From: Candidatus Omnitrophota bacterium
GTDB taxonomy: Bacteria > Omnitrophota > Omnitrophia > Omnitrophales > Aquincolibacteriaceae
Assembly: GCA_043803685.1 (NCBI GenBank)
Contig: JAZDJU010000106.1
Coordinates: 1 to 45,171, forward strand
Direction of reading: 5' to 3'
DNA length: 45,171 nucleotides
The notes under the pieces were generated by a model. The model saw only the letters and a program-made list of their open reading frames with translations. It had not been told where the DNA came from and ran no database searches. The position numbers were made by a program, and so were the translations under genes. Shown here one piece after another: positions 932-45,171 of this stretch. Numbering within the stretch: the first letter of the stretch is position 1; every line of letters starts with the position of its first letter.

Positions 932-1030
932 ATGGCGGTATCGTCCACGGTCCCAATTCTTATCAATTTCAGCGGGGCTGAAATTGGGGCTGTCATGACT
1001 ACGTTGATGGAAAGAAGACAAAAGTCATGA
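932..1030 (+). CDS. Putative 32-aa small ORF MAVSSTVPILINFSGAEIGAVMTTLMERRQKS (not in ORF track)
   Basis: SD GGAGGTG at 921-927, ATG at 932; its TGA overlaps the ATG at 1027. Spans the 44-nt repeated hairpin element. Confidence 0.35.
   Translation: MAVSSTVPILINFSGAEIGAVMTTLMERRQKS
947..990 (+). repeat. 44-nt hairpin element, copy 1
   Basis: ACGGTCCCAATTCTTATCAATTTCAGCGGGGCTGAAATTGGGGC; 41/44 identical to 35397-35440; perfect 10-bp stem 964-973/977-986. Confidence 0.9.
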
Positions 1031-1071
1031 CGGCTCAAACTGTAGCGCATAATTTTCTTGAGGGGAAATTT

Positions 1072-1899
1072 ATGGAAAAGGAAATGTCGGCAGTACAGCA
1101 ATTCTTCAAAACGGCAGTGGAATTTCTTACTAATTACAGCTTTCAGGTCGTCGGCGCGATCCTTGTTCTTATTATCGGGAACTTTATCGCGAATTGGGCT
1201 CTGGGGGTCGTTCTCAAGCTTTGCCAGGCAAAAAAAGTCGATATTACTCTAGCCAAGTTCATCGCGTCTTGCGTGAAGATTTTGATCCTGGCTTTTGCCA
1301 TCATTATCGCTCTCGGGAAATTCGGTATCACCATAACGCCCTTTATCGCCATGATCGGTGCCGGAGCCTTCGGTGTCAGCATGGCTTTGCAGGGCCCACT
1401 GTCCAACTATGGCGCCGGGATCTCGATCATTCTCGGTCATCCGTTCGTGGTGGGGGATACCATTGTGGTGACGGGGCAAAGCGGGGTGGTCCAGGAAGTG
1501 ACGTTGTCCTCGACGATCCTCACTGATGAAGATGGCGTGAAGATCACGATCCCGAACAAGAGCATTGTGGGCGAGATCATCCATAATTCGTTTAAGTACA
1601 AGATCGTGGAGAACATGGTCGGCGTCAGCTACTCAGACGATCCCGAGAAGGCCATTCAGGTGATCCAGAAGACGATCGCGGGTTTCAAAGAGGTTGCCGA
1701 GACGCCTAAGCCGCAGGTCGGTCTTCAGGAATTCGGGGATTCTTCACTTAATATCGGGTGTCGCTACTGGATCCCGACCACGAAATATTTTCAGACCCTT
1801 TGCGCGATCAATCTCGCGATCCATAAGGCGCTCGCAGCCGCTCAGCTCACGATGCCCTATCCGCAGCGCGATATTCACATTGTTTCGGGGAAGATCTAG
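1072..1899 (+). CDS. mscS: Small-conductance mechanosensitive channel MscS
   Basis: Three N-terminal TM helices, GAGAFGVSMALQGPLSNYGAGI pore helix, PFVVGD, IPN and MPYPQRDIH motifs. Start 1072 follows GAGGGG; alternative in-frame ATG at 1027. Confidence 0.93.
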   Translation: MEKEMSAVQQFFKTAVEFLTNYSFQVVGAILVLIIGNFIANWALGVVLKLCQAKKVDITLAKFIASCVKILILAFAIIIALGKFGITITPFIAMIGAGAFGVSMALQGPLSNYGAGISIILGHPFVVGDTIVVTGQSGVVQEVTLSSTILTDEDGVKITIPNKSIVGEIIHNSFKYKIVENMVGVSYSDDPEKAIQVIQKTIAGFKEVAETPKPQVGLQEFGDSSLNIGCRYWIPTTKYFQTLCAINLAIHKALAAAQLTMPYPQRDIHIVSGKI

Positions 1900-35198: not shown

Positions 35199-35275
35199 TG
35201 GTGTAAAGAGCAAACCTGGAGTAATCCAGGGGCGCAAAACCGTGCATCCTTGAAAGGATTGGCAGGTTGCCACCA
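35199..35275 (+). ncRNA. GEMM-I (c-di-GMP-I class) riboswitch, A20 variant
   Basis: P1 TGGTG/CACCA; TAAAGA-GCAAA-CCTGGA-GTAA-TCCAGG-GGCGCAAA-ACC...ATCCTT-GAAA-GGAT...GGTTGC matches GEMM-I layout with a GNRA loop. Position-20 equivalent (35209) is A. Confidence 0.88.
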
Positions 35276-35322: not shown

Positions 35323-35365
35323 GCCAGGTAAGGTCAAACTTTATCCTGGCGTTTTTTTTTTTTTT
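35323..35365 (+). terminator. Intrinsic terminator downstream of the GEMM aptamer
   Basis: GCCAGGTAAGGT-CAA-ACTTTATCCTGGC stem followed by G and T14. Confidence 0.8.
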
Positions 35366-35370
35366 AATCG

Positions 35371-35387
35371 AAAGTGCCAGGCACTTT
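35371..35387. repeat. REP-like perfect palindrome AAAGTGCC-A-GGCACTTT
   Basis: 8-bp arms with a 1-nt centre, about 140 bp upstream of the RAYT-fold gene. Confidence 0.7.
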
Positions 35388-35396
35388 TACTCTACG

Positions 35397-35440
35397 ACGG
35401 TCCCAATACTTATCAATTTCAACGGGGTTGAAATTGGGGC
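35397..35440 (+). repeat. 44-nt hairpin element, copy 2
   Basis: ACGGTCCCAATACTTATCAATTTCAACGGGGTTGAAATTGGGGC; stem CAATTTCAAC/GTTGAAATTG. Confidence 0.9.
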
Positions 35441-35529
35441 CGCCCAAACTACCATGTTGGAAATGAAATGGAAAGTTTGGGTGGGCCATTTTGAACCGGT
35501 GGCCGTGAAAGTCGGAAGGGGTGGGCGCC

Positions 35530-36186
35530 ATGCCTAGATTTCCGAGGATCCATTTAGAGGACGCCATTTATTCCATTCAGATGGAAGGTCCTTCCGGCGA
35601 GCCTATTTATAAAGATGCCGAGGATTACGGAAAATATCTAAGCATTCTTTCCCAGGCCAAGCAGGAATTCGGCTTCAAACTTTTCTCTTACGCGATCATG
35701 CCCGATCGCATTCATCTTTTGATCGAGCCGCAGGAAGATCATCCGGTCTCCCAGATCATGCAGAAGATCACGCCGAACTACACCAAGTACTATAATAGTA
35801 AATACGGCCGTAAAGGACATCTCTTTCCCAAACGCTTCCGTTCGGTCTATGTCGAGCGTAACGCCTATCTTCCCAAACTTACCCGTTTCATCCATCTTCT
35901 TCCGGAGAGGAGCGGCGTCGCCTCATGTTTCCGTGAATATCCTTATTCGAGTTACGCGGCTTATGCGTCGAACGCGAAGGGCCCCATCTTAGTCGAAGTG
36001 ACTGAGGTGATCCGATCGCTGGGCGTTGCTGTTTCCGAAGATCCCTACGAACGTTACATGCTTTCTGCGGACGACCGGGAGTTGGAATACCTCGAGAAGA
36101 AATTGTCCCGCGGTTCTTTCCTGGGTTCCGATGAGTTCGTTTCAAAGGTCCGCCAGGAGATCGCTCTTCACGCCGCAAAAAAATAA
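35530..36186 (+). CDS. RAYT/IS200-like Y1 transposase-fold protein with degenerate active site
   Basis: MPRFPRI...FKLFSYAIMPDRIHLLI...YTKYYNSKYGRKGHLF..RFRS...TRFIHLLPERSG...YPYSSY. HUH first His is Arg (35707) and the catalytic Tyr is Phe (35887). Confidence 0.85.
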   Translation: MPRFPRIHLEDAIYSIQMEGPSGEPIYKDAEDYGKYLSILSQAKQEFGFKLFSYAIMPDRIHLLIEPQEDHPVSQIMQKITPNYTKYYNSKYGRKGHLFPKRFRSVYVERNAYLPKLTRFIHLLPERSGVASCFREYPYSSYAAYASNAKGPILVEVTEVIRSLGVAVSEDPYERYMLSADDRELEYLEKKLSRGSFLGSDEFVSKVRQEIALHAAKK

Positions 36187-36792
36187 CAAGAAGCGCCCGT
36201 GGAAGAAGTCCTCGCGGAAGCGCCGGCATTTTCGGCTCCCGTTCCGGCGGAGCCTGTTCTCGCCGGAGGCTGGAAGATGCGTCCTATTATTCTTTCCGGA
36301 GCTTTGTTCGCGACGATCGCGCTCAGTTTCATCTCAACAACCTTTGATCGTCCGGTCAAACCGGTCGCGACTTCTGCGGTGTCCGCGGTTGGGACGAAGG
36401 CCCTCGAGAGCAAGATGGTCGCGCGCGCTACGCCTCGTACCTTTAAAGAGCCGATCGAAGGCATGATCTGGGAAGTGGAGATCTACACGATCACAAAGGA
36501 CGGCGCCACTCATCCCATCAAGGACAAGATCCGTTTCAACGGGAAGTCCTTCGAGTCCTATTACTTTTCAAGTCAGGGTTTTTCTCCTTCCAATTACACG
36601 GTGAAGGTCCGTGAGAATGGGGCCATTACCTGGGAAACGATGCAACGGAATCCCAAGGGAGAGCTCATCAGCTGGCGCGGCGACCTGGAAGGTGGCAGGA
36701 TGGAAGGCGTGATGAATTATCAAACCTCGGAGAAAAATATCCAGAATTTTTCTTTTTTAAGTAATGATATCGTGAGGCTGAAAAATGGATAA
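36187..36792 (+). CDS. In-frame continuation of the RAYT-fold gene: Pro/Ala/Glu linker, TM helix, beta-rich extracytoplasmic domain
   Basis: Same frame directly after TAA 36184-36186; no clear SD before GTG 36199; TM PIILSGALFATIALSFISTTF. Confidence 0.7.
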   Translation, partial: QEAPVEEVLAEAPAFSAPVPAEPVLAGGWKMRPIILSGALFATIALSFISTTFDRPVKPVATSAVSAVGTKALESKMVARATPRTFKEPIEGMIWEVEIYTITKDGATHPIKDKIRFNGKSFESYYFSSQGFSPSNYTVKVRENGAITWETMQRNPKGELISWRGDLEGGRMEGVMNYQTSEKNIQNFSFLSNDIVRLKNG

Positions 36793-37561
36793 AACCATAG
36801 CTTCTAGACTAAAGACTATAGACCCTAGCCTAGAAACAGAAAAACAAAAGGCTATAAGCTACGGGCTATATGCTATAGGCCTCATTTTCGCGATGGTTCT
36901 TTTCCCGCTCGTGGGATATGCCGCGACACAAACCTCGGATCATGCCGGCGACGCCTCAAGCGAACTTTCGGTCACGCTCAGTAAATCGATCGAGGCCGGT
37001 AAAGCGGTGGCGGGTCGTGCGCTTTCCAGCAAGGCAAAAGCGGCGAGCGCAGCAGCCGCTCCGTCAGCGGACATAACCCCGGAGATCATCGGTAGCACTC
37101 CTGAGAAAACAGCAGGCATTACAGGCAAGGCCACAGCCACTCAAGGAGCGAAGGTTTTGCCGGTCGCATCTCCCAAAAAGTATGTCTTTAAATATCCCGA
37201 CCTGCCGGTCCTCAGTGAAGATATGCAACCCGTGAAAAAAACGCTCACCGGCGAGGTGGGGGTTGTGATTAAGACGGGCATGAATGTCGAATTTGACCGT
37301 AAGGCGTCCTCTTCGACCGATCTCTGGGTCGAATTTACCCAGGGGACTCAAGTCGAGGGTGTGAAGGCTTTTAGTGAATTTCTTCCGGGCGATAAGGTGC
37401 AGATCACGTACGCGGAAGCCAAAGATCAATCGAAGCGCGCGGTGCGGTCGATCAAACTCTTGAAGAGAAAGACCGAGGAAGAGAAAAAGCGTGAAGCTGC
37501 GGCAGAAGCGCGCGCCGAAGCCGCAGCGGCTCAAAAATCAACCCGGGCGGAGGAGTCATGA
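36785..37561 (+). CDS. Exported protein with Ala/Ser/Thr-rich linker and C-terminal OB-fold-like domain
   Basis: Hydrophobic segment YGLYAIGLIFAMVLFPLVGYA; TLTGEVGVV...FSEFLPGDKVQITY; overlaps both neighbours. Confidence 0.7.
   Translation: MDKTIASRLKTIDPSLETEKQKAISYGLYAIGLIFAMVLFPLVGYAATQTSDHAGDASSELSVTLSKSIEAGKAVAGRALSSKAKAASAAAAPSADITPEIIGSTPEKTAGITGKATATQGAKVLPVASPKKYVFKYPDLPVLSEDMQPVKKTLTGEVGVVIKTGMNVEFDRKASSSTDLWVEFTQGTQVEGVKAFSEFLPGDKVQITYAEAKDQSKRAVRSIKLLKRKTEEEKKREAAAEARAEAAAAQKSTRAEES
36795..36878. repeat. Inverted heptamer arrays (CTATAGC-type x5, GCTATAG-type x4) inside the 5' end of a CDS
   Basis: CCATAGC TTCTAGA CTAAAGA CTATAGA CCCTAGC (36795-36829); GCTATAA GCTACGG GCTATAT GCTATAG (36851-36878). 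Confidence 0.7.
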
Positions 37562-40500
37562 ACTTAAGACCCTGCGTTAAAAAGGAGAGTGTTTTTTCCT
37601 CCCGCAGGGTGCGTCTGGCGGCGTTGGGTCTGGGCATCGTTCTGGCGTTCCTGGCCGCGATCCCGGACGCCGAAGCCGTCCAGATCAAGCGCGTTATTCA
37701 GGGTTCGGAAGCCTTTCTCGCGGACGACGTCTCGAACAGCGTTACGCTGGGTCTCGGCGTCGGTGATTATGTGGATACCAGCAAGGCCTTTATCTACATC
37801 ACCAGTTCGGTCGCGGGAACCACCGCCGACCAGAACATGTTCTTTTACGCCTACTTTGAAGACGGCCAGAATATCAATATCACGCGCGCCACCGGAACCG
37901 TTGTGGCGACTGTTACCTGGTATGTCGTGGAGTTCGTCGACGGCGTTTCCGTCCAGCGCGGCTTGACCAGTCTTGCCAAGGGCGATTTGACGAAAGATTG
38001 TATTTTGACGGCCGTGGACCAGACGAAATCGTTCCCCATTATCGGGGACGGCGGTTTGATCACCACCACGACGGACACGGAGGTTTTGACCGTCATGCCG
38101 TATTTTACAAGCGATACCGTGCTCCGCCTTCAGCGTATAAGAACCGCGACTAACGCCGGTATCGCAAAAACAGTGATCATCGCCTGGCAGGTCGTGCAAT
38201 TCGAGACCGACGCTTCGGTCGCGACGGGGAGCGGAACCATCGCAGCGGCCGCCACATCCGCCACAGCGACGATCAGTCCCGCTCTTAGCGCTTCCTACGC
38301 GACGCAGGCCTTTCCGCTCATTTATTATTCGGGGAATCTGGGTATTAACGGGATCGACTCCATGATCATGGTTCGCGGCAGGCTCACCGCGACGAACCAG
38401 ATCACGGTGAATCGTCGCATTGGAGGTTTGACCAACGACGACGTGTATTATCGAGTCTATGGCGTTGAATTGACGGATGGCGCGAGTACGGTGCAGAACA
38501 GCACCAAACAGCTCACGGCGGGTACGCTTACGAGTACCTCCACAATCACTTCGGTGGATTATGCCAACCGCGTTGTGCCGTTCATCAGTATGAGCGGAGG
38601 TAACGGGTCGAGCAATAACAGGATGGCGGACGATATCTTCACCCGTGTGGAGCTGACGAATGCCACGACCTTGACCTTTGCGCGTCAGGCGGCCAACAAC
38701 AGCATTGTGGTCGATCTTGATTTTAGCGCCGTGGAGTTTTGTCCGGTGACGATCAAGACGCCGAATGGCGGCGCGACGCAGCAGGGAGCAAACGCCTGGG
38801 TCGTGGGAACTAGCTACCAACTTCTCTGGAAACACGCGGACAGCGTGGCCGCCCATAATTGGAAACTTCAGTATTCGCTGAACTCGGGAGGCGCCTATTC
38901 GGATATGGGGAGTTGGTGCGGCGCGGCGGGGACGGCGGCGTGCTCGGGCACGGGAAATCTTTCGGCGGACTCGGGGTCGGCTGTCGCGAACGAAGGAAGC
39001 ATTCTCTGGACGATCCCTTCAAGCACCAATTTCATCGGAACTCTTGTGAGGCTCCGGCTGATTGATACGACGTTAACGGGTTCAGGTTATTCCGAGGCGA
39101 GAAGCCGTGACAGTTCCAATGCCGATTTTACGGTTCGCGGATCCGTGTCGGCCGTCGCTTTGGCGGATACGGATGGGGCCCTTAGCGCGGACAATCCGCT
39201 CGGCGTCGGGAATGCCGATCTCGGTGTGACCTGGTCTCACACGGGAGCGATCGGGAACGTGATTATCGAACTCGATCCTAACGGGGACGGGAATTACGCG
39301 GACGTCGTTACGATCAAAGCCAGCACGTCGGGTACTTCCGATGCCTGTAACGCCGCATGTACTGCCTGGACGGTTCCCGACAGCGTTTCCACGAACGCCA
39401 AGATCCGCGTTCGGGAATTAGCGCCGCCTTCGGGGACCACGGTGGAAGCGGTGAGCTCCGCGTTCGAGATCCGGCCGTTCCTTGCTTTTTTTAGACCGAT
39501 CGCGGGGGACACTTGGGTTCGAGGCCAGGCCCAGACGCCTACGGCCACGAACGGTGTGGTTCGCTGGTGTCAAAAGGGGACGGTTTCTCCCGGGGTGGAT
39601 ATTCGATATTCCGCGAACGCCGGCAACGCTTATTCAGGGGAAGCCAACAAAGTTGCTACGGGGCTTACTTCAAGCGGCACTTGCGACGCTTCGCATTTTT
39701 GCGCGGATTCCGGACAAACCGGTTGCACCGGGGGCACTCAATATAAGTATAACTGGACGCTTCCGGGGGATCTTACTTTGAGCGAAGGTAATGCAATGCT
39801 CAAGATCGTCAAGACGGGGGACCTTGCAGAGCTAGTCTCACATACTACCGGTCTTTTTACGACCAAGGCCTCGGTTCAGCTTGACGCGCCGATCGTCGAT
39901 TCCTCGGCTCCGCTGCGTTATCAGACAGGAGCCGAGCTCACCACTGTCAGCTGGACCAGTCCCGGCGGTGGACAGGGGGTTGTCCAACTCAGGTATTGCA
40001 ATGGTTATGTGGCCAACGGCTGTCAAGGCAATCCGGGCGATTCGGACTGGACTTTGATGACCGATCCTTCGACTGCCACGAATTTAACGACTCCGGGGTC
40101 GTACAACTGGAAAGTCCAGGCAGCGATCGGGACGGATGTCGGGATCATGGTTGCGGATATGACAAGCCCCACGCTGATCTATGCCATGAACGGGCCTTAT
40201 ACGGTCAAGGCCAGTATCACGGTGAACGAACCCGGAGGCGCTCAAACGATGCTGCAGGTCGGAGAGTCCCGGACGATCACATGGACCCCTTCCGGCACGA
40301 TCGGGACGGTTTACATCTGTCTCGATAAGACCGATAACGGGACCTGCGATTATGAAATCGCCGGCGCGGTCGAAAACGTACAGGCCACTGCGGGGCTCTG
40401 GAGTGATTGGCAGCCGCCGGCGGGCGGAGCCACGGAAGTTCCTAATGAGCAATGCACGAACTGCCGCATCCGTGTTTACAAGCCGGGCGATGGCGCGGAC

Positions 40501-43500
40501 CCGGCGGGAACGGTCGGAAAGTCCGGTCTTTTTTCCCTCGGTCGTGCGCTTAACACGGTCGCCGTCAGTGGAACGCCTCCCCGGAAGATCGGAGATGTCG
40601 TGGATGTCACCTGGACCGCTTTTCCGGACGATGCGACATGGACCGTGACGCCGAAATGGTCGACCGATGGTACAAGTTGGAATAATTTGTACAGTGGTCC
40701 TTCGACGCGGGCCGCCGATGGAAGCCCCAGCAGTTGGACGATCCCTGATGTGACGACGATCGTTTCTTCCTCCGTGCGCGTTCGCATTGAAGACGCCGCC
40801 AATAGCAGTCTTTACAGTGATTCGGCTCTGTTTCAGGTCAAAGGAAAGCTCATCCTTACGCAACCTGTGGGCTCTCCCTGGAAGATCGGTACGCCTCATG
40901 ATATCGTTTGGTCCCGGACCGGCGGTACCGCGATCGCGAATGTGAACATTAAATATTCGCTGGACGGTGGAATTAGCTATCCTTCTCAATATACGATCAA
41001 GAGTCTCAGTGGCGGCGGTAGTCCCTTTAGTTGGTGTGTCGGGAAAAATGATGGTTGCAGCGGGACGACCCCAGGTCAGCCTGCGAATGATCCTCTCCTG
41101 GTGATCGGGGCCAATGACAAGAATACGATCGTCAAGATCATGGTTGAAGATGCGGACGATACCAAGGGCAGTGTTGGGGGAGGGACCTACAGCGAGGCGA
41201 CCGCGGACATTACCATTCAAAAAGATTATGCGTCGGTTTTGATCGGAAACCTCGCGGCCGGCGCGGTTCTGTATGTCGGGGATACCAACGGGACGGACCG
41301 CATTAAATGGACGACGGTTGGGGATTCGACGAGCAATGTGTTTCTGGCGTATCAGACTAGCGGCTATACGTTCCCGACCAATAATATCAAGGACGTTCCG
41401 GGCGCAAGTGACGTCAACGCTTACCATTTGTGGACCGTTCCCGACGCTATTGGGGCCGCAGTCAAGGTCAGGGTCAAGAACGCGAATTTCCCCGATGATA
41501 TCTATGCGGATTCCGGTGCCTTCGTGATCAAGGGGAAGATCACGACCGCGTTCCCGACGACCGGTTCCGTGTTGGTGGTGGGACAGGACGTGCCAGGTGG
41601 TATTCAATACGCAAAATTCGGGGATATCGGGAATCTCGAGATCATTTACAGACACGGCACCTATGATACTGTGATCACGCCTCCAGCGAGTCCGGGTCCG
41701 GAAGGCACAAGTGAAGGGACCACTTTCTCGTGGAACGTGGTTTCGACGGATTCGAATAGTGACAGTGTGATCCACGTGGGGCTTGGCCAACCGACTAGCA
41801 AGTTCATACTGACCGGGTTGACGCAAAAAGGGGATCCCGCGTTGGAGGCGACCATCGAAACGCCGCTCTTCAAGATCCGCGGTGATCTTTATAACGGTGC
41901 GGCTTCCCAGCTTCTTTCGGAGCCGGGAGGCGGGGAAGTTTACGCGATCGGTGGGGTGACGCAACGCTATGTCCGTTGGCGAGCTCGCGGCATTATCGGG
42001 AACGTCCGGGTGCGTTTGGACTTGAACGACGGCAAGGGCGATGACGATACGGCCAACACCTCAGACGATTATGCCATCCAGGTCCAAAGGCCAAATGCGG
42101 CATGCGGGACGCCCCCCTGCTACGCGGAATCCGTCGCTTATAATCTCGAGGAAGATACCTCGGATACGGATAATTACAGCATGGAATGGCTCATCCCCGA
42201 TCTGTCGACGTATCAAGCCCGTATCCGGGTGGAGAGCCTGGACAATCCTTATGACTACAATGATCCCAGTAATGCCATGGCGACTTACGCCATCACCGGA
42301 AGGTACGACAACCAAAAGTTCTGGATCCGGCCCAGTGTGGCTGTGGTCTCTCCGAACGGCGCACAAAATCCCCAGTGGAAAACCGGCGAAACTGGAAAAT
42401 CGATCATCGTCAGTTCCAGTGGCGCCGCGAAGCTTGATGTCTGGCTTTGCTATAACAACGCCACGAGCGATTGGCCCGATTGCTCGACCAAATACGTGAT
42501 CACGTCAAACTTTCAGGTGAGTGCCGGCAATAGAGAATTTTCTTGGAATGTCCCCAATGATTTTAGTACCGAAAATGCCATCATCCATGTGCAGTGGTCG
42601 GACCAGACTTCGATCAGCGGTGAATCGGCCGCCATTTTCAAGATCAAATCGGCGCTAGGTGTCACCTACCCGAACCAGTTCAGCGATGAGATCGTCGTGG
42701 GCAGCAGCGACGGGTCCAATGACATCACCTGGACCGCGATCGGCGTCGGGCCTTCGGATACGGTGAAGATCAACGTCTCGACGGACGGGACGACCTGGAA
42801 TGACGGGACGCCGACCTACGCGAATCTGGGAGGATTGATCGTGGGTTCGGCCTCGGCGACGAGTGGTGTTTACACCTCCTGGACGGTCCAGGACATCATG
42901 TCGGATGCCGCAAAGATCCGAGTTTGTAAGAACGAAGGCGCTGCGACGGGCGAAGCGTGCGCGATCTCAAATGTTTTCAATATCACAGGTTCTATTTCTT
43001 CCGTTTATGTCAAAAATGCCGTGAACGATCCTGAGCCGCCAACGCCAGTGGTCGATCTTTCCATTCAGGACAAGACCAAGGTCATTACCTGGAAATACAC
43101 GGGGAGTCTGGGTACGGTCAATATTGACTACACCATTAACGCAAGTAATCTAACGCCTACCTGGTTTCCGGTGATCGGGTGCCAGGATGTTTCCGTGGGA
43201 GCCGGCGGAAGCGGTTCTTGCGTATGGGATCCAGTCACGGGTATTCCCGGGCCGCCTTCCGCGGACGTCAAGGTCCGTGTTTCCAACAAACAGCACCATA
43301 ATCCCACTCCCGATAGCTGGAAAGATCTGACGACGGTTGGAACGCAGACTCACAGTATTATTGGAAGTATCACGGAAGTCGGGGTCGTGCCGGATGCTGA
43401 CGGATCTGTTCTGAGAGTGGCCGGAAGCAAATCAATCCGCTGGAAGCAGAACGGGGGTATTACAAGTTTCGATATCAAATACAGGGTCGATGGTGGAAGC

Positions 43501-45171
43501 TGGCTTGGGACGGGCCTTACCGGTGTCGCAGGCGCGGAGAATGGCGGTTACCTGACCCAGGAATGGGCCGGGATCCCGGACGACATTTCCAACGATGTTG
43601 ATTTTCTCGTCGCGGACCACAATAACGCGGCCAAGGTTTTGTGTGCCAGTGACGACAACGCCACAGGGAAGTGTTCTGAGGGAAGTCCGAACGGTTTTAT
43701 TCTGAAAGGTCAATTGAGCATTGGGTCCCCGGTGGTGACGGATAACTGGACCATCGGAGCTACGCCGAGTCCCTCCATCCGTTGGACTAAGTACGGAAGT
43801 ATCGGGGATCTCAAGAGTGAATACTCAACGACCGGGACCTTCGCGGCCGGGGATTATTCGGGCGGGAATGTATACACGATCGAGAGCGCTTATCCTGCCG
43901 GTAGCGATGGAGTCAATAATTACGCGTGGCAGGTCGGTATCATCGGCGCGAACCGAAAACTTTCGGATACGGGCAAGATCCGCCTGACGACCGTGAGCCA
44001 GCCTGTCGGCGCGGAGCTGGATATTTCAAGCGATGCCTTCAAGATCCGTCCTTCCATTGATTCGATCGATAAACCGGTGGTCGGAGGGACCCCCACCGTG
44101 TGGTACGCGACGGATACAGATGCCGGGCAAACGATCGAGTGGGTCTCCAAGAGCGGCACCAAAACGAATGAGGTCGTTCCAACCTGTATTGTGGAATATT
44201 CGACGAACGGAACGGATTACACGACGGTCCCCGGTGGCGCCAGCGTTGATTGCAGTCAGGGCGGGCACAGTCTTGCATGGACTCCCATGGCCGATCTTCG
44301 AAGCACCACGGTTCGTGTCAGGATCTCCTACAATGATTACACATCCGTGAATCTCGATACCGGATCGGGAGGCCAATTTTTCACAGTTCGTCCAAAGATC
44401 GTGGTGACGCCGACACCGGATGCCACCACGAAGCTTGTTGTGGGGACGACTTATAACAATTTGATCAAGTGGACCTATTCGGGGACGACCACGAACCGGA
44501 AAGTGGAGATCCGCTATGACAAGAACAATGAGAACACTTTCCCCGCAAACCAGACGATCGCCACCGATATCGACGCGGGTACGGGAGCGACCGGAGTCAC
44601 CTGGACCAATGTTCCGAATATCATCGGGGCGGACGTGAAGGTTCGTGTGTTCGATTTGGATTTTACGGCGTCTCAGGATGATTCGCCCCCGTTCAAGATC
44701 GTGGGAGGCATTTATTTCGCGACGCCTCAAAGCGGGGTGAACCGTACGGCGGACACCACGATGAACATCACCTGGACCTACACGGGGACGATCGCGAATT
44801 TTGACATCTATTACAGTGCCAATAGCGGCGGTGACTGGACTGTGGATCCGATCGGGAGCGCGACCGACGTGGGGAATTGCGCGGCCGGGAGCTGCAGTTT
44901 TTCATGGCTTGACACCCAAGCCGACAACATCGACGCCGTATTGAACACGGCTCGCTTCAAGATCACGAACGCCCTTGCCTCCAGCGCGCCACTTTATGCT
45001 GAAAGTGTCGCCGCATCCGATTTCAAGCGCGGCGCGTCTGTTTCGAATTTGCTTCCCGCGAACGGTCAGGTGATCTCGGCGGGATCGACGGATACGGACA
45101 TTACCTGGAACAAGCTGAAGGGTTTGTCGGCGGATACGAAGCTGAAGATCGAGTACACGAAGAACGCTTCT
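37558..45171 (+). CDS. Giant secreted surface protein with tandem Ig-like repeats, >2538 aa, 3' truncated (absent from ORF track)
   Basis: ATG 37558 after GGAGGAG overlaps the upstream TGA. Signal peptide RRVRLAALGLGIVLAFLAAIPDAEA-V. I saw no stop in this frame up to ...KIEYTKNAS. Repeats of P.GG..W.VG...I.W...G....V.I.YS.DG...W. Confidence 0.93.
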   Translation, partial: MNLRPCVKKESVFSSRRVRLAALGLGIVLAFLAAIPDAEAVQIKRVIQGSEAFLADDVSNSVTLGLGVGDYVDTSKAFIYITSSVAGTTADQNMFFYAYFEDGQNINITRATGTVVATVTWYVVEFVDGVSVQRGLTSLAKGDLTKDCILTAVDQTKSFPIIGDGGLITTTTDTEVLTVMPYFTSDTVLRLQRIRTATNAGIAKTVIIAWQVVQFETDASVATGSGTIAAAATSATATISPALSASYATQAFPLIYYSGNLGINGIDSMIMVRGRLTATNQITVNRRIGGLTNDDVYYRVYGVELTDGASTVQNSTKQLTAGTLTSTSTITSVDYANRVVPFISMSGGNGSSNNRMADDIFTRVELTNATTLTFARQAANNSIVVDLDFSAVEFCPVTIKTPNGGATQQGANAWVVGTSYQLLWKHADSVAAHNWKLQYSLNSGGAYSDMGSWCGAAGTAACSGTGNLSADSGSAVANEGSILWTIPSSTNFIGTLVRLRLIDTTLTGSGYSEARSRDSSNADFTVRGSVSAVALADTDGALSADNPLGVGNADLGVTWSHTGAIGNVIIELDPNGDGNYADVVTIKASTSGTSDACNAACTAWTVPDSVSTNAKIRVRELAPPSGTTVEAVSSAFEIRPFLAFFRPIAGDTWVRGQAQTPTATNGVVRWCQKGTVSPGVDIRYSANAGNAYSGEANKVATGLTSSGTCDASHFCADSGQTGCTGGTQYKYNWTLPGDLTLSEGNAMLKIVKTGDLAELVSHTTGLFTTKASVQLDAPIVDSSAPLRYQTGAELTTVSWTSPGGGQGVVQLRYCNGYVANGCQGNPGDSDWTLMTDPSTATNLTTPGSYNWKVQAAIGTDVGIMVADMTSPTLIYAMNGPYTVKASITVNEPGGAQTMLQVGESRTITWTPSGTIGTVYICLDKTDNGTCDYEIAGAVENVQATAGLWSDWQPPAGGATEVPNEQCTNCRIRVYKPGDGADPAGTVGKSGLFSLGRALNTVAVSGTPPRKIGDVVDVTWTAFPDDATWTVTPKWSTDGTSWNNLYSGPSTRAADGSPSSWTIPDVTTIVSSSVRVRIEDAANSSLYSDSALFQVKGKLILTQPVGSPWKIGTPHDIVWSRTGGTAIANVNIKYSLDGGISYPSQYTIKSLSGGGSPFSWCVGKNDGCSGTTPGQPANDPLLVIGANDKNTIVKIMVEDADDTKGSVGGGTYSEATADITIQKDYASVLIGNLAAGAVLYVGDTNGTDRIKWTTVGDSTSNVFLAYQTSGYTFPTNNIKDVPGASDVNAYHLWTVPDAIGAAVKVRVKNANFPDDIYADSGAFVIKGKITTAFPTTGSVLVVGQDVPGGIQYAKFGDIGNLEIIYRHGTYDTVITPPASPGPEGTSEGTTFSWNVVSTDSNSDSVIHVGLGQPTSKFILTGLTQKGDPALEATIETPLFKIRGDLYNGAASQLLSEPGGGEVYAIGGVTQRYVRWRARGIIGNVRVRLDLNDGKGDDDTANTSDDYAIQVQRPNAACGTPPCYAESVAYNLEEDTSDTDNYSMEWLIPDLSTYQARIRVESLDNPYDYNDPSNAMATYAITGRYDNQKFWIRPSVAVVSPNGAQNPQWKTGETGKSIIVSSSGAAKLDVWLCYNNATSDWPDCSTKYVITSNFQVSAGNREFSWNVPNDFSTENAIIHVQWSDQTSISGESAAIFKIKSALGVTYPNQFSDEIVVGSSDGSNDITWTAIGVGPSDTVKINVSTDGTTWNDGTPTYANLGGLIVGSASATSGVYTSWTVQDIMSDAAKIRVCKNEGAATGEACAISNVFNITGSISSVYVKNAVNDPEPPTPVVDLSIQDKTKVITWKYTGSLGTVNIDYTINASNLTPTWFPVIGCQDVSVGAGGSGSCVWDPVTGIPGPPSADVKVRVSNKQHHNPTPDSWKDLTTVGTQTHSIIGSITEVGVVPDADGSVLRVAGSKSIRWKQNGGITSFDIKYRVDGGSWLGTGLTGVAGAENGGYLTQEWAGIPDDISNDVDFLVADHNNAAKVLCASDDNATGKCSEGSPNGFILKGQLSIGSPVVTDNWTIGATPSPSIRWTKYGSIGDLKSEYSTTGTFAAGDYSGGNVYTIESAYPAGSDGVNNYAWQVGIIGANRKLSDTGKIRLTTVSQPVGAELDISSDAFKIRPSIDSIDKPVVGGTPTVWYATDTDAGQTIEWVSKSGTKTNEVVPTCIVEYSTNGTDYTTVPGGASVDCSQGGHSLAWTPMADLRSTTVRVRISYNDYTSVNLDTGSGGQFFTVRPKIVVTPTPDATTKLVVGTTYNNLIKWTYSGTTTNRKVEIRYDKNNENTFPANQTIATDIDAGTGATGVTWTNVPNIIGADVKVRVFDLDFTASQDDSPPFKIVGGIYFATPQSGVNRTADTTMNITWTYTGTIANFDIYYSANSGGDWTVDPIGSATDVGNCAAGSCSFSWLDTQADNIDAVLNTARFKITNALASSAPLYAESVAASDFKRGASVSNLLPANGQVISAGSTDTDITWNKLKGLSADTKLKIEYTKNAS

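Follow-up and report, generated by a model that had tools for sequence, protein, structure and literature searches.

A 44-base repeat in Candidatus Omnitrophota is the left half of a mobile, gene-less two-hairpin element that likely picks its target by base pairing

Transposons of the IS200/IS605 family such as IS608, as well as their gene-less derivatives (PATEs), carry two different hairpin ends and show strand asymmetry, as stated in the sections of PMC5934647 on these elements. The passages of PMC5934647 and PMC3201880 devoted to IS608 describe a cut 3' of a short site that is read by an internal guide, with the base at position -2 left unpaired. REPINs, which are inverted pairs of one REP, have been proposed to move by an enzyme acting in trans (PMC3116915 and PMC8266576, in the parts on their spread). 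In addition, the relevant parts of PMC3733652 (Di Nocera et al. 2013) describe three further groups of repeats: TIRtrons, which carry the inverted-repeat motif GGGGWSAS and are associated with TIRYT proteins; CGTC-tagged repeats and the Rickettsia RPEs, which have YGTC at the hairpin foot, insert in frame into genes and have no known dedicated transposase; and MITEs of DDE transposases, with terminal inverted repeats of 15-30 bp.

The window, i.e., the whole 45,171-nt stretch of Candidatus Omnitrophota DNA analysed here, contains two 44-base repeats, at 947-990 and 35397-35440. They are the left halves of two copies of a gene-less DNA element of ~84 bases, in which a target triplet is followed by a left hairpin, a middle triplet, a right hairpin and a tail triplet; element length is 83-85 nt, with a mode of 84 nt (79/143). 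A sequence-only reading of this DNA had reported the 44-mer as a repeated element: the repetition is real and far beyond chance, but the 44-mer is only the left half of a two-hairpin insert of 83-84 nt, and in this genome a second hairpin follows almost every match to the left-half profile. We conclude that the repeat is real, mobile, selfish DNA.

The element resembles IS200/IS605 in its two different hairpin ends and strand asymmetry, in inserting on the 3' side of a short site that its own internal bases predict (as PMC5934647 and PMC3201880 relate, in part, for that family), and in its -2 position, which is often unpaired like the -2 base in IS608 cleavage sites (PMC3201880, in its treatment of cleavage). 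On the other hand, the element appears to use one middle triplet for both ends, whereas IS200/IS605 uses two tetranucleotide guides (as far as these sources describe them). Its left and right sites are the same triplet, whereas those of IS200/IS605 are different cleavage sites and leave no target duplication; insertion of the element therefore looks like a 3-bp duplication. Moreover its pairing is a plain stem extension, several guide/target variants coexist, the predicted cut lies within or at the foot of a stem unlike that of IS608, the lagging-strand-template orientation bias described for the family in part of PMC5027513 is absent, and our searches found no cognate tnpA.

Like the REP/BIME/REPIN repeats of RAYT (TnpA-REP) proteins, as portrayed in the parts of the literature cited above, the element consists of short, lineage-restricted hairpin doublets that occur in many copies, in arrays and nested. 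Unlike them, it has no GTAG/GTGG tag at the hairpin foot in our alignment and joins two different hairpins in direct order instead of inverting one REP; neither a REPtron nor a repeat-flanked cognate RAYT gene was found, and the predicted cut site is not CT. The TIRtron motif resembles the left junction of the element read on the other strand, and local Y1 genes, too, have ends centred on C-N-G triplets, but the element is gene-less, has no terminal inverted repeat pair and is not the end of any Y1 gene examined. With the CGTC-tagged repeats and RPEs it shares all three traits named above; compared by the description in PMC3733652, it differs as a fixed two-hairpin unit of ~84 nt with longer loops and a triplet rule. 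In place of the long inverted repeats of MITEs, only about three terminal bases are complementary in the alignment. The element works most like a gene-less IS200/IS605 or a REPIN-type element, yet its features place it in neither group. No description of it was found in the open-licence literature searched. What we add here is a quantified middle-triplet rule with a control for relatedness, a dumbbell circle, a link to local Y1 ends and a negative strand-bias test.

Copy 1 (83 nt, 951-1033, forward strand; covariance model match 947-1033, 84.8 bits) follows the target triplet CGG at 948-950, which is host DNA and is repeated by the tail of the element (1031-1033); the empty sites here read CGG, CCG and CAG. 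Its left hairpin half (951-989) contains an inner stem at 964-986 (964-973 with 977-986), and is followed by the middle triplet CTG at 990-992, which can pair with either the target triplet or the tail triplet, and by the right half up to 1033; the right hairpin (990-1033) pairs 990-1000 with 1023-1033. Copy 2 (84 nt, 35401-35484, forward strand; 93.2 bits) has target CGG at 35398-35400, inner stem 35414-35423/35427-35436, middle triplet CCG at 35440-35442 and tail TGG at 35482-35484.

The two 44-mers differ at exactly three positions (958/35408 T/A, 972/35422 G/A and 978/35428 C/T), and 972 and 978 are partners within the 10-bp inner stem, just as had been read from the sequence. This compensatory change is general because the same pair varies over an alignment of 61 copies, two from the window and 59 from other genomes: G-C 31, A-T 22, T-A 4, G-T 1 and other 3. 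The selection on structure that had been proposed from this single pair was borne out by the covariation check, with both stems covarying strongly: paired cells made up 91.3% as compared to 76.0% after shuffling, two-sided changes occurred in 16 of 21 pairs, and the covariation score was 0.479 versus at most 0.082 in slid controls. The left-half outer helix hardly varies and thus cannot show covariation. This outer pairing had been thought to exclude the inner stem; in fact it displaces only the lowest four pairs, and the predicted minimum-free-energy folds of both window copies keep the outer helix together with an inner helix of six or seven pairs, 972/978 included. Over the left half, the window copies show 92% agreement as compared to a family mean of 75%, and over the right half 58% as compared to 55%, and 30 of 780 copy pairs in the genome match each other over the left half equally well; they are no special pair within the family.

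In the stems, G-T pairs (51) outnumbered A-C pairs (19), indicating that the given strand is the folding strand. Orientation relative to neighbouring genes, as called by a simple in-house predictor, was random: of 54 loci, 19 were sense and 22 antisense, nine divergent and one convergent, and three lay at contig ends, while 76 of 84 clusters were 32 sense, 27 antisense, 12 divergent and 5 convergent, a distribution that fits intergenic length. The strand-biased G-T pairs and the random gene orientation together make single-stranded DNA the more likely folding strand, rather than a messenger leader. The position of both 44-mers in sense orientation upstream of a gene, as earlier noted, is true for the window copies only: with 54 loci now placed in the genome, the family has neither a sense nor a position bias, and copy 1 lies inside a short reading frame. 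Replication-strand bias was likewise absent (44 versus 35, and 25 versus 26 among the loci that carry this left half), the strand having been assigned in a draft genome from third-position GC skew. Fold prediction for the circularised top strand gave a closed dumbbell in 73/81 copies. At Rfam gathering thresholds the only match in the window was a c-di-GMP-I riboswitch, with none for the element.

Comparison with relatives revealed the insertions directly. The site of copy 1 is empty in all 12 mscS orthologues fetched and that of copy 2 in all three genus orthologues of the adjacent Y1-fold gene; deleting 951-1033 gives a gap-free alignment with relatives G004, G005 and G016, and deleting 35401-35484 with G004, G005 and G007. 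Contigs of public run X2 join across copy 1. Among 28 flank comparisons from 81 solo copies, 19 were gap-free, three had a gap of 1-2 bases and six were not cleanly aligned, and 14 of 22 elements were gap-free once the insert was removed. Relative to empty sites, insertion adds one extra triplet copy; the upstream triplet was the one kept at two informative empty sites (copy 2 and the start of an ABC-type gene), with two other sites ambiguous.

In relatives, one reading frame leads without a shift into mscS (1027-1899, forward strand), a gene of the mechanosensitive channel family with Pfam MS_channel domains; copy 1 landed six codons into it. With its length of 83 nt it shifted this frame out of mscS, so that a 32-codon reading frame (932-1030, forward strand) now begins at the ATG that is in frame with mscS in relatives and ends in a TGA overlapping a new ATG at 1027, which comes from the copy 1 tail (3' arm of the right hairpin) and is itself in frame with mscS. 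All 12 orthologues keep a second mscS ATG, at 1072, which has a ribosome-binding site. Copy 2 landed between a c-di-GMP-I riboswitch aptamer (35199-35274, forward strand; Rfam RF01051, 56.8 bits) with its terminator-like hairpin and T-run (~35323-35365, read by eye) and the start codon of the Y1-fold gene; three relatives have the same leader without the insert. Both copies are likely tolerated passengers, although a local effect on mscS or the riboswitch-controlled gene may exist. Elsewhere, 10 copies have flanks that map inside a protein; nine of them are a multiple of three and open, lying within unrelated genes on either strand.

For quantification of the link between element and target, 170 candidate two-half copies were reduced to 153 that had the whole flank and a good right stem, to 95 that were non-nested, non-tandem and G-ending, and to 81 after merging orthologous sites. 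The upstream flank equalled the tail at -2 in 66/81 copies (null 29) and at -3 in 72/81 (null 40), the G at -1 being fixed partly by construction since the search pattern and the G-ending filter impose it; the match was weak at -4 and -5, with no signal on average beyond -5, and flank and tail triplets were identical in 59/81. Moreover, the middle triplet predicted the target triplet in 62/81 copies by a fixed rule read off the same data, as compared to a null mean of 18 and maximum of 33: CAA accompanied by TAG (23/27), CCG by CGG (20/20), CAG by CAG (10/13), CCA by TGG (3/3), CGG by CCG (2/4), and CTG by CTG, CAG or CGG (10/12). When relatedness was controlled with 24 disjoint nearest-neighbour pairs with unlike middle triplets, the fit to the own element was better in 18, worse in two and tied in four.

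The match would allow pairing: at the variable outer position the middle triplet can pair with the target triplet as C-G in 37 and T-A in 22 of 61 copies. It is also able to pair with the tail, and the centre is often mismatched (A-A 32 and T-T 8 of 81). The middle triplet carried 0.95 and 0.83 bits of information on the target. We considered a guide within the left half and rejected it, as columns A12, A19, A20 and A33 (the last three in the stem) carry a weak 0.24-0.32 bits. In copies with unlike triplets, the tail went with the middle triplet 21 times and with the upstream one 12 times, a weak test of polarity. Since three middle bases match the three bases behind which the element lands, the element likely picks its target by base pairing. 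One orthologous pair, L187 in this genome (G000:C114:2168-2251) and L220 in G007, is nearly identical outside the target and middle triplets, which read TGG/CCA and TAG/CAA respectively, with TAG as the tail in both; such a concerted change at one orthologous site means that some of the covariation may postdate insertion.

The iterated left-half profile gave 66 matches of at least 25 bits in the 2.89-Mb genome, corresponding to the 54 loci, while the top score on the reversed genome was 8; profiles of both halves gave the 84 clusters, and none on the reversed genome. Thirty of these clusters scored for the right half only, and by eye many of them bear other kinds of left hairpin. Within the genus, the pattern was present in 18 of the 19 other genomes; none of 21 genomes from other genera had it. 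Across 96 genomes of the order, the covariance model matched in 32: this genome, 18 congeners, five from three other genera of the family (4-28 strong copies) and eight further genomes with only 1-3 weak matches. Matching public records were titled Candidatus Omnitrophota, Omnitrophica or uncultured bacterium. Copies also nest within one another. Near-identical nested composites of ~250 nt (G000:C31:10676, C61:10468, C98:61613, C123:5505 and C31:6056) are the most similar copies in the genome, suggesting recent movement of the stacked unit as a whole.

Next to copy 2 lies a gene for a Y1-fold protein with a second domain that has a hydrophobic stretch (35530-36792, forward strand), and the sequence-only reading had considered the repeat a REP-derived target of this RAYT-fold protein. 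The first half of that idea was right in kind, the element being a structured, REP-like dispersed DNA repeat whose folding is under selection. The second half did not hold: R and F replace the first HUH histidine and the catalytic tyrosine, here and in the orthologues, so the catalytic residues are absent; the three orthologues in the genus have no insert; and the gene has its own, different palindrome (35371-35387, forward strand, CAG centre), which is present in relatives without the insert and is no part of the element. On these grounds the protein was rejected as mover or partner. With this protein as query, orthologues came up in no more than 3 of 19 congeners (plus a more distant relative in G025), and the element family is abundant in 15 congeners for which this query gave none. 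In G004, G005 and G007 the gene is uninterrupted over 429-430 codons, while here a TAA at 36184-36186, absent in the relatives, interrupts it through mutation or assembly error. It sits behind the c-di-GMP-I riboswitch and terminator-like hairpin, and this catalytically dead fusion looks like a domesticated transposase fold.

The search for the moving enzyme covered several families. This genome has two more Y1 genes, and both carry inverted repeats of their own. Element halves were not found as gene ends at any of 32 Y1 loci from relatives of the same order or 80 metagenome Y1 loci; four of the 32, including that of the window, have an element copy nearby but their own inverted repeats. The two IS200-like loci, L154 and L155, gave no match. 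Furthermore, PF01797 had no match in G019 (95% complete), G006 (93%) and G015 (82%), despite 26, 55 and 75 pattern matches respectively. On the other hand, a perfect palindrome centred on C-N-G stands at the ends of 21 of 32 Y1 genes of the order versus 261 of 1053 control genes, an enrichment whose P value is overstated by the relatedness of the Y1 genomes, and one Y1 group, including L002 of this genome, ends in a triplet-TCCC motif that is the left-junction motif of the element. The link of the element to local Y1 ends is, at this stage, a resemblance. At the ends of comM-, dprA- and radC-like genes, so named by eye from their translations, stand the seemingly intact Y1 genes L002, L042, L038 and L023, which have inverted repeats of their own.

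As to other enzymes, IS110 (PF02371, PF01548) was absent from this genome and present in 4 of 19 congeners, with no element copy in the four loci fetched. IS91-type Y2 transposases were found in 0/20 genomes and integron integrases in 0/20 genomes of the genus, in both cases by searches run without a positive control, so that these zeros are no evidence of absence. One of four stand-alone GIY-YIG genes lies 196 nt from a cluster, while the others are at least 10 kb off or on copy-free contigs. The genome encodes XerC/D-like and other tyrosine recombinases, and none of nine such genes lies within 11 kb of an element copy on its own contig. The most likely mover is a Y1-type enzyme from elsewhere.

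The account that we hold with somewhat more belief than doubt is that a gene-less two-hairpin element of 83-85 nt, inserted behind triplets that match its tail, is likely moved as a single-stranded circle by an HUH transposase (Y1, TIRYT/RAYT-like) acting in trans. At each end of the element, the enzyme would nick the top strand on the 3' side of the triplet, and the 84-nt circle would then close, with a predicted dumbbell fold in which the tail pairs with the middle triplet. At insertion, a chromosomal Y-N-G would take the place of the tail in that same pairing, so that one internal guide would serve both ends; the repeated triplet would travel with the element and not be a copy made from the target, and changes in the middle triplet would retarget the element. 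An HUH Y1 enzyme is favoured because of the Y1 ends with C-N-G centres, the triplet-TCCC motif and the parallel with the cut and guide of IS608. Against it stand the lack of any Y1 gene with these ends in the loci searched, the three repeat-rich genomes without PF01797 and the absence of replication-strand bias. A more specific form, which we advance only tentatively, is a minimal transposon that naturally retargets itself: a single-stranded dumbbell circle of 84 nt whose one internal triplet guides both excision and insertion, moved by a Y1 enzyme of the TIRYT class, a class for which no experimental substrate was found in the open-licence literature searched. Under this form specificity would have switched many times (CAA to TAG, CCG to CGG, CAG to CAG, CTG to CTG/CAG/CGG, CCA to TGG and CGG to CCG).

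The same element might instead be recombined as folded single-stranded DNA by a tyrosine recombinase, by analogy of the integron-integrase or the XerC/D-like type. The dumbbell circle would then mimic a double-stranded site, with one strand exchanged over three bases of homology. The predicted rod with a pseudo-symmetric centre in 73/81 copies, the confinement of homology to three bases, the absent replication-strand bias, a copy inverted at the same palindromic CTAG site between genomes, and the XerC/D-like and other tyrosine recombinases encoded here are all consistent with such a route. It predicts, however, retention of the downstream triplet, while the two informative empty sites retain the upstream one; the distance of all nine recombinase genes from any copy on their contigs argues in the same direction, XerC/D-like genes are expected also in relatives that do not carry the family, and the search for integron integrases, run without a positive control, gave 0/20. 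We rate it as unlikely. An ordinary MITE or REP-like element with a true 3-bp target duplication, in which the triplet match arose later by hairpin-templated mutation or folding selection, strikes us as similarly improbable. The repeated stretch is indeed three bases, the ends make a minimal inverted repeat, one orthologous pair shows a concerted change of flank and middle triplet, and at some gene or tRNA ends the tail agrees with the target over 7-13 bases in a few copies, pointing to copying or to an adjustment made later. Yet templated correction would remove the central mismatch, which persists (A-A and T-T in 40 copies as counted above), and the rule holds in 62/81 copies in all kinds of location; long terminal inverted repeats are absent, and IS110 was found in only 4/20 genomes, with no copy in the fetched loci.

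A cis-regulatory RNA of a new kind, or a binding site of the neighbouring catalytically dead Y1-fold protein, would account for covarying stems with a G-U bias, for the place of copy 2 between a riboswitch terminator and a start codon, and for the overlapping short frame created by copy 1. With neither sense nor position bias in the family, a cis-regulatory RNA, as had been suggested, is unlikely: orientation is random, positions track intergenic length and both sites are empty in relatives. Moreover copies lie in frame inside unrelated genes on either strand, and an orthologue of the protein was found in few congeners (3/19). As a family-wide function this reading is largely refuted, and we consider it very improbable.

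The family offers a precise, testable substrate with defined ends, a predicted circle and cut position, and several natural guide/target pairs. It bears on how REP-like repeats spread and on the enzyme of TIRYT-type or "orphan" hairpin repeats, as these are framed in parts of PMC3733652 and PMC8266576. If the middle triplet does steer insertion, the element would be a natural counterpart of engineered IS608 retargeting. The element also remodels host genes, via in-frame inserts of 28 codons, replaced start codons and tRNA ends.

Several individual sites were also observed. An in-frame copy (L192, G000:C117:49327-49407) lies in an AddA-like helicase/nuclease gene, named from its N-terminal motif, and another (G000:C98:21308-21391) inside a frame of 5358 codons. 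In the window itself, 3' of the riboswitch-controlled genes, 37558-45171 is an open frame of at least 2538 codons that has no Pfam match and runs off the window. L190 (G000:C37:126728-126806) stands at the 5' end of a tRNA-Ser-like gene and L191 (G000:C92:18839) at the 3' end of a tRNA-Val-like gene (both named by eye); they repeat 12-13 bases of the target, far beyond the usual three, and thus the tail rebuilds the tRNA end. At a palindromic CTAG site (L189, G000:C37:60141-60224, with L235 and L236) G010 has the element the other way round from G000 and G004, and the site is empty in G005, G007 and G011. Finally, one gene start carries different family members in G000, G004, G007 and G010 (L185, G000:C79:47367-47449, and L206, L207 and L209) and is empty in G005 and G011; every one of these tails restores the ATG.
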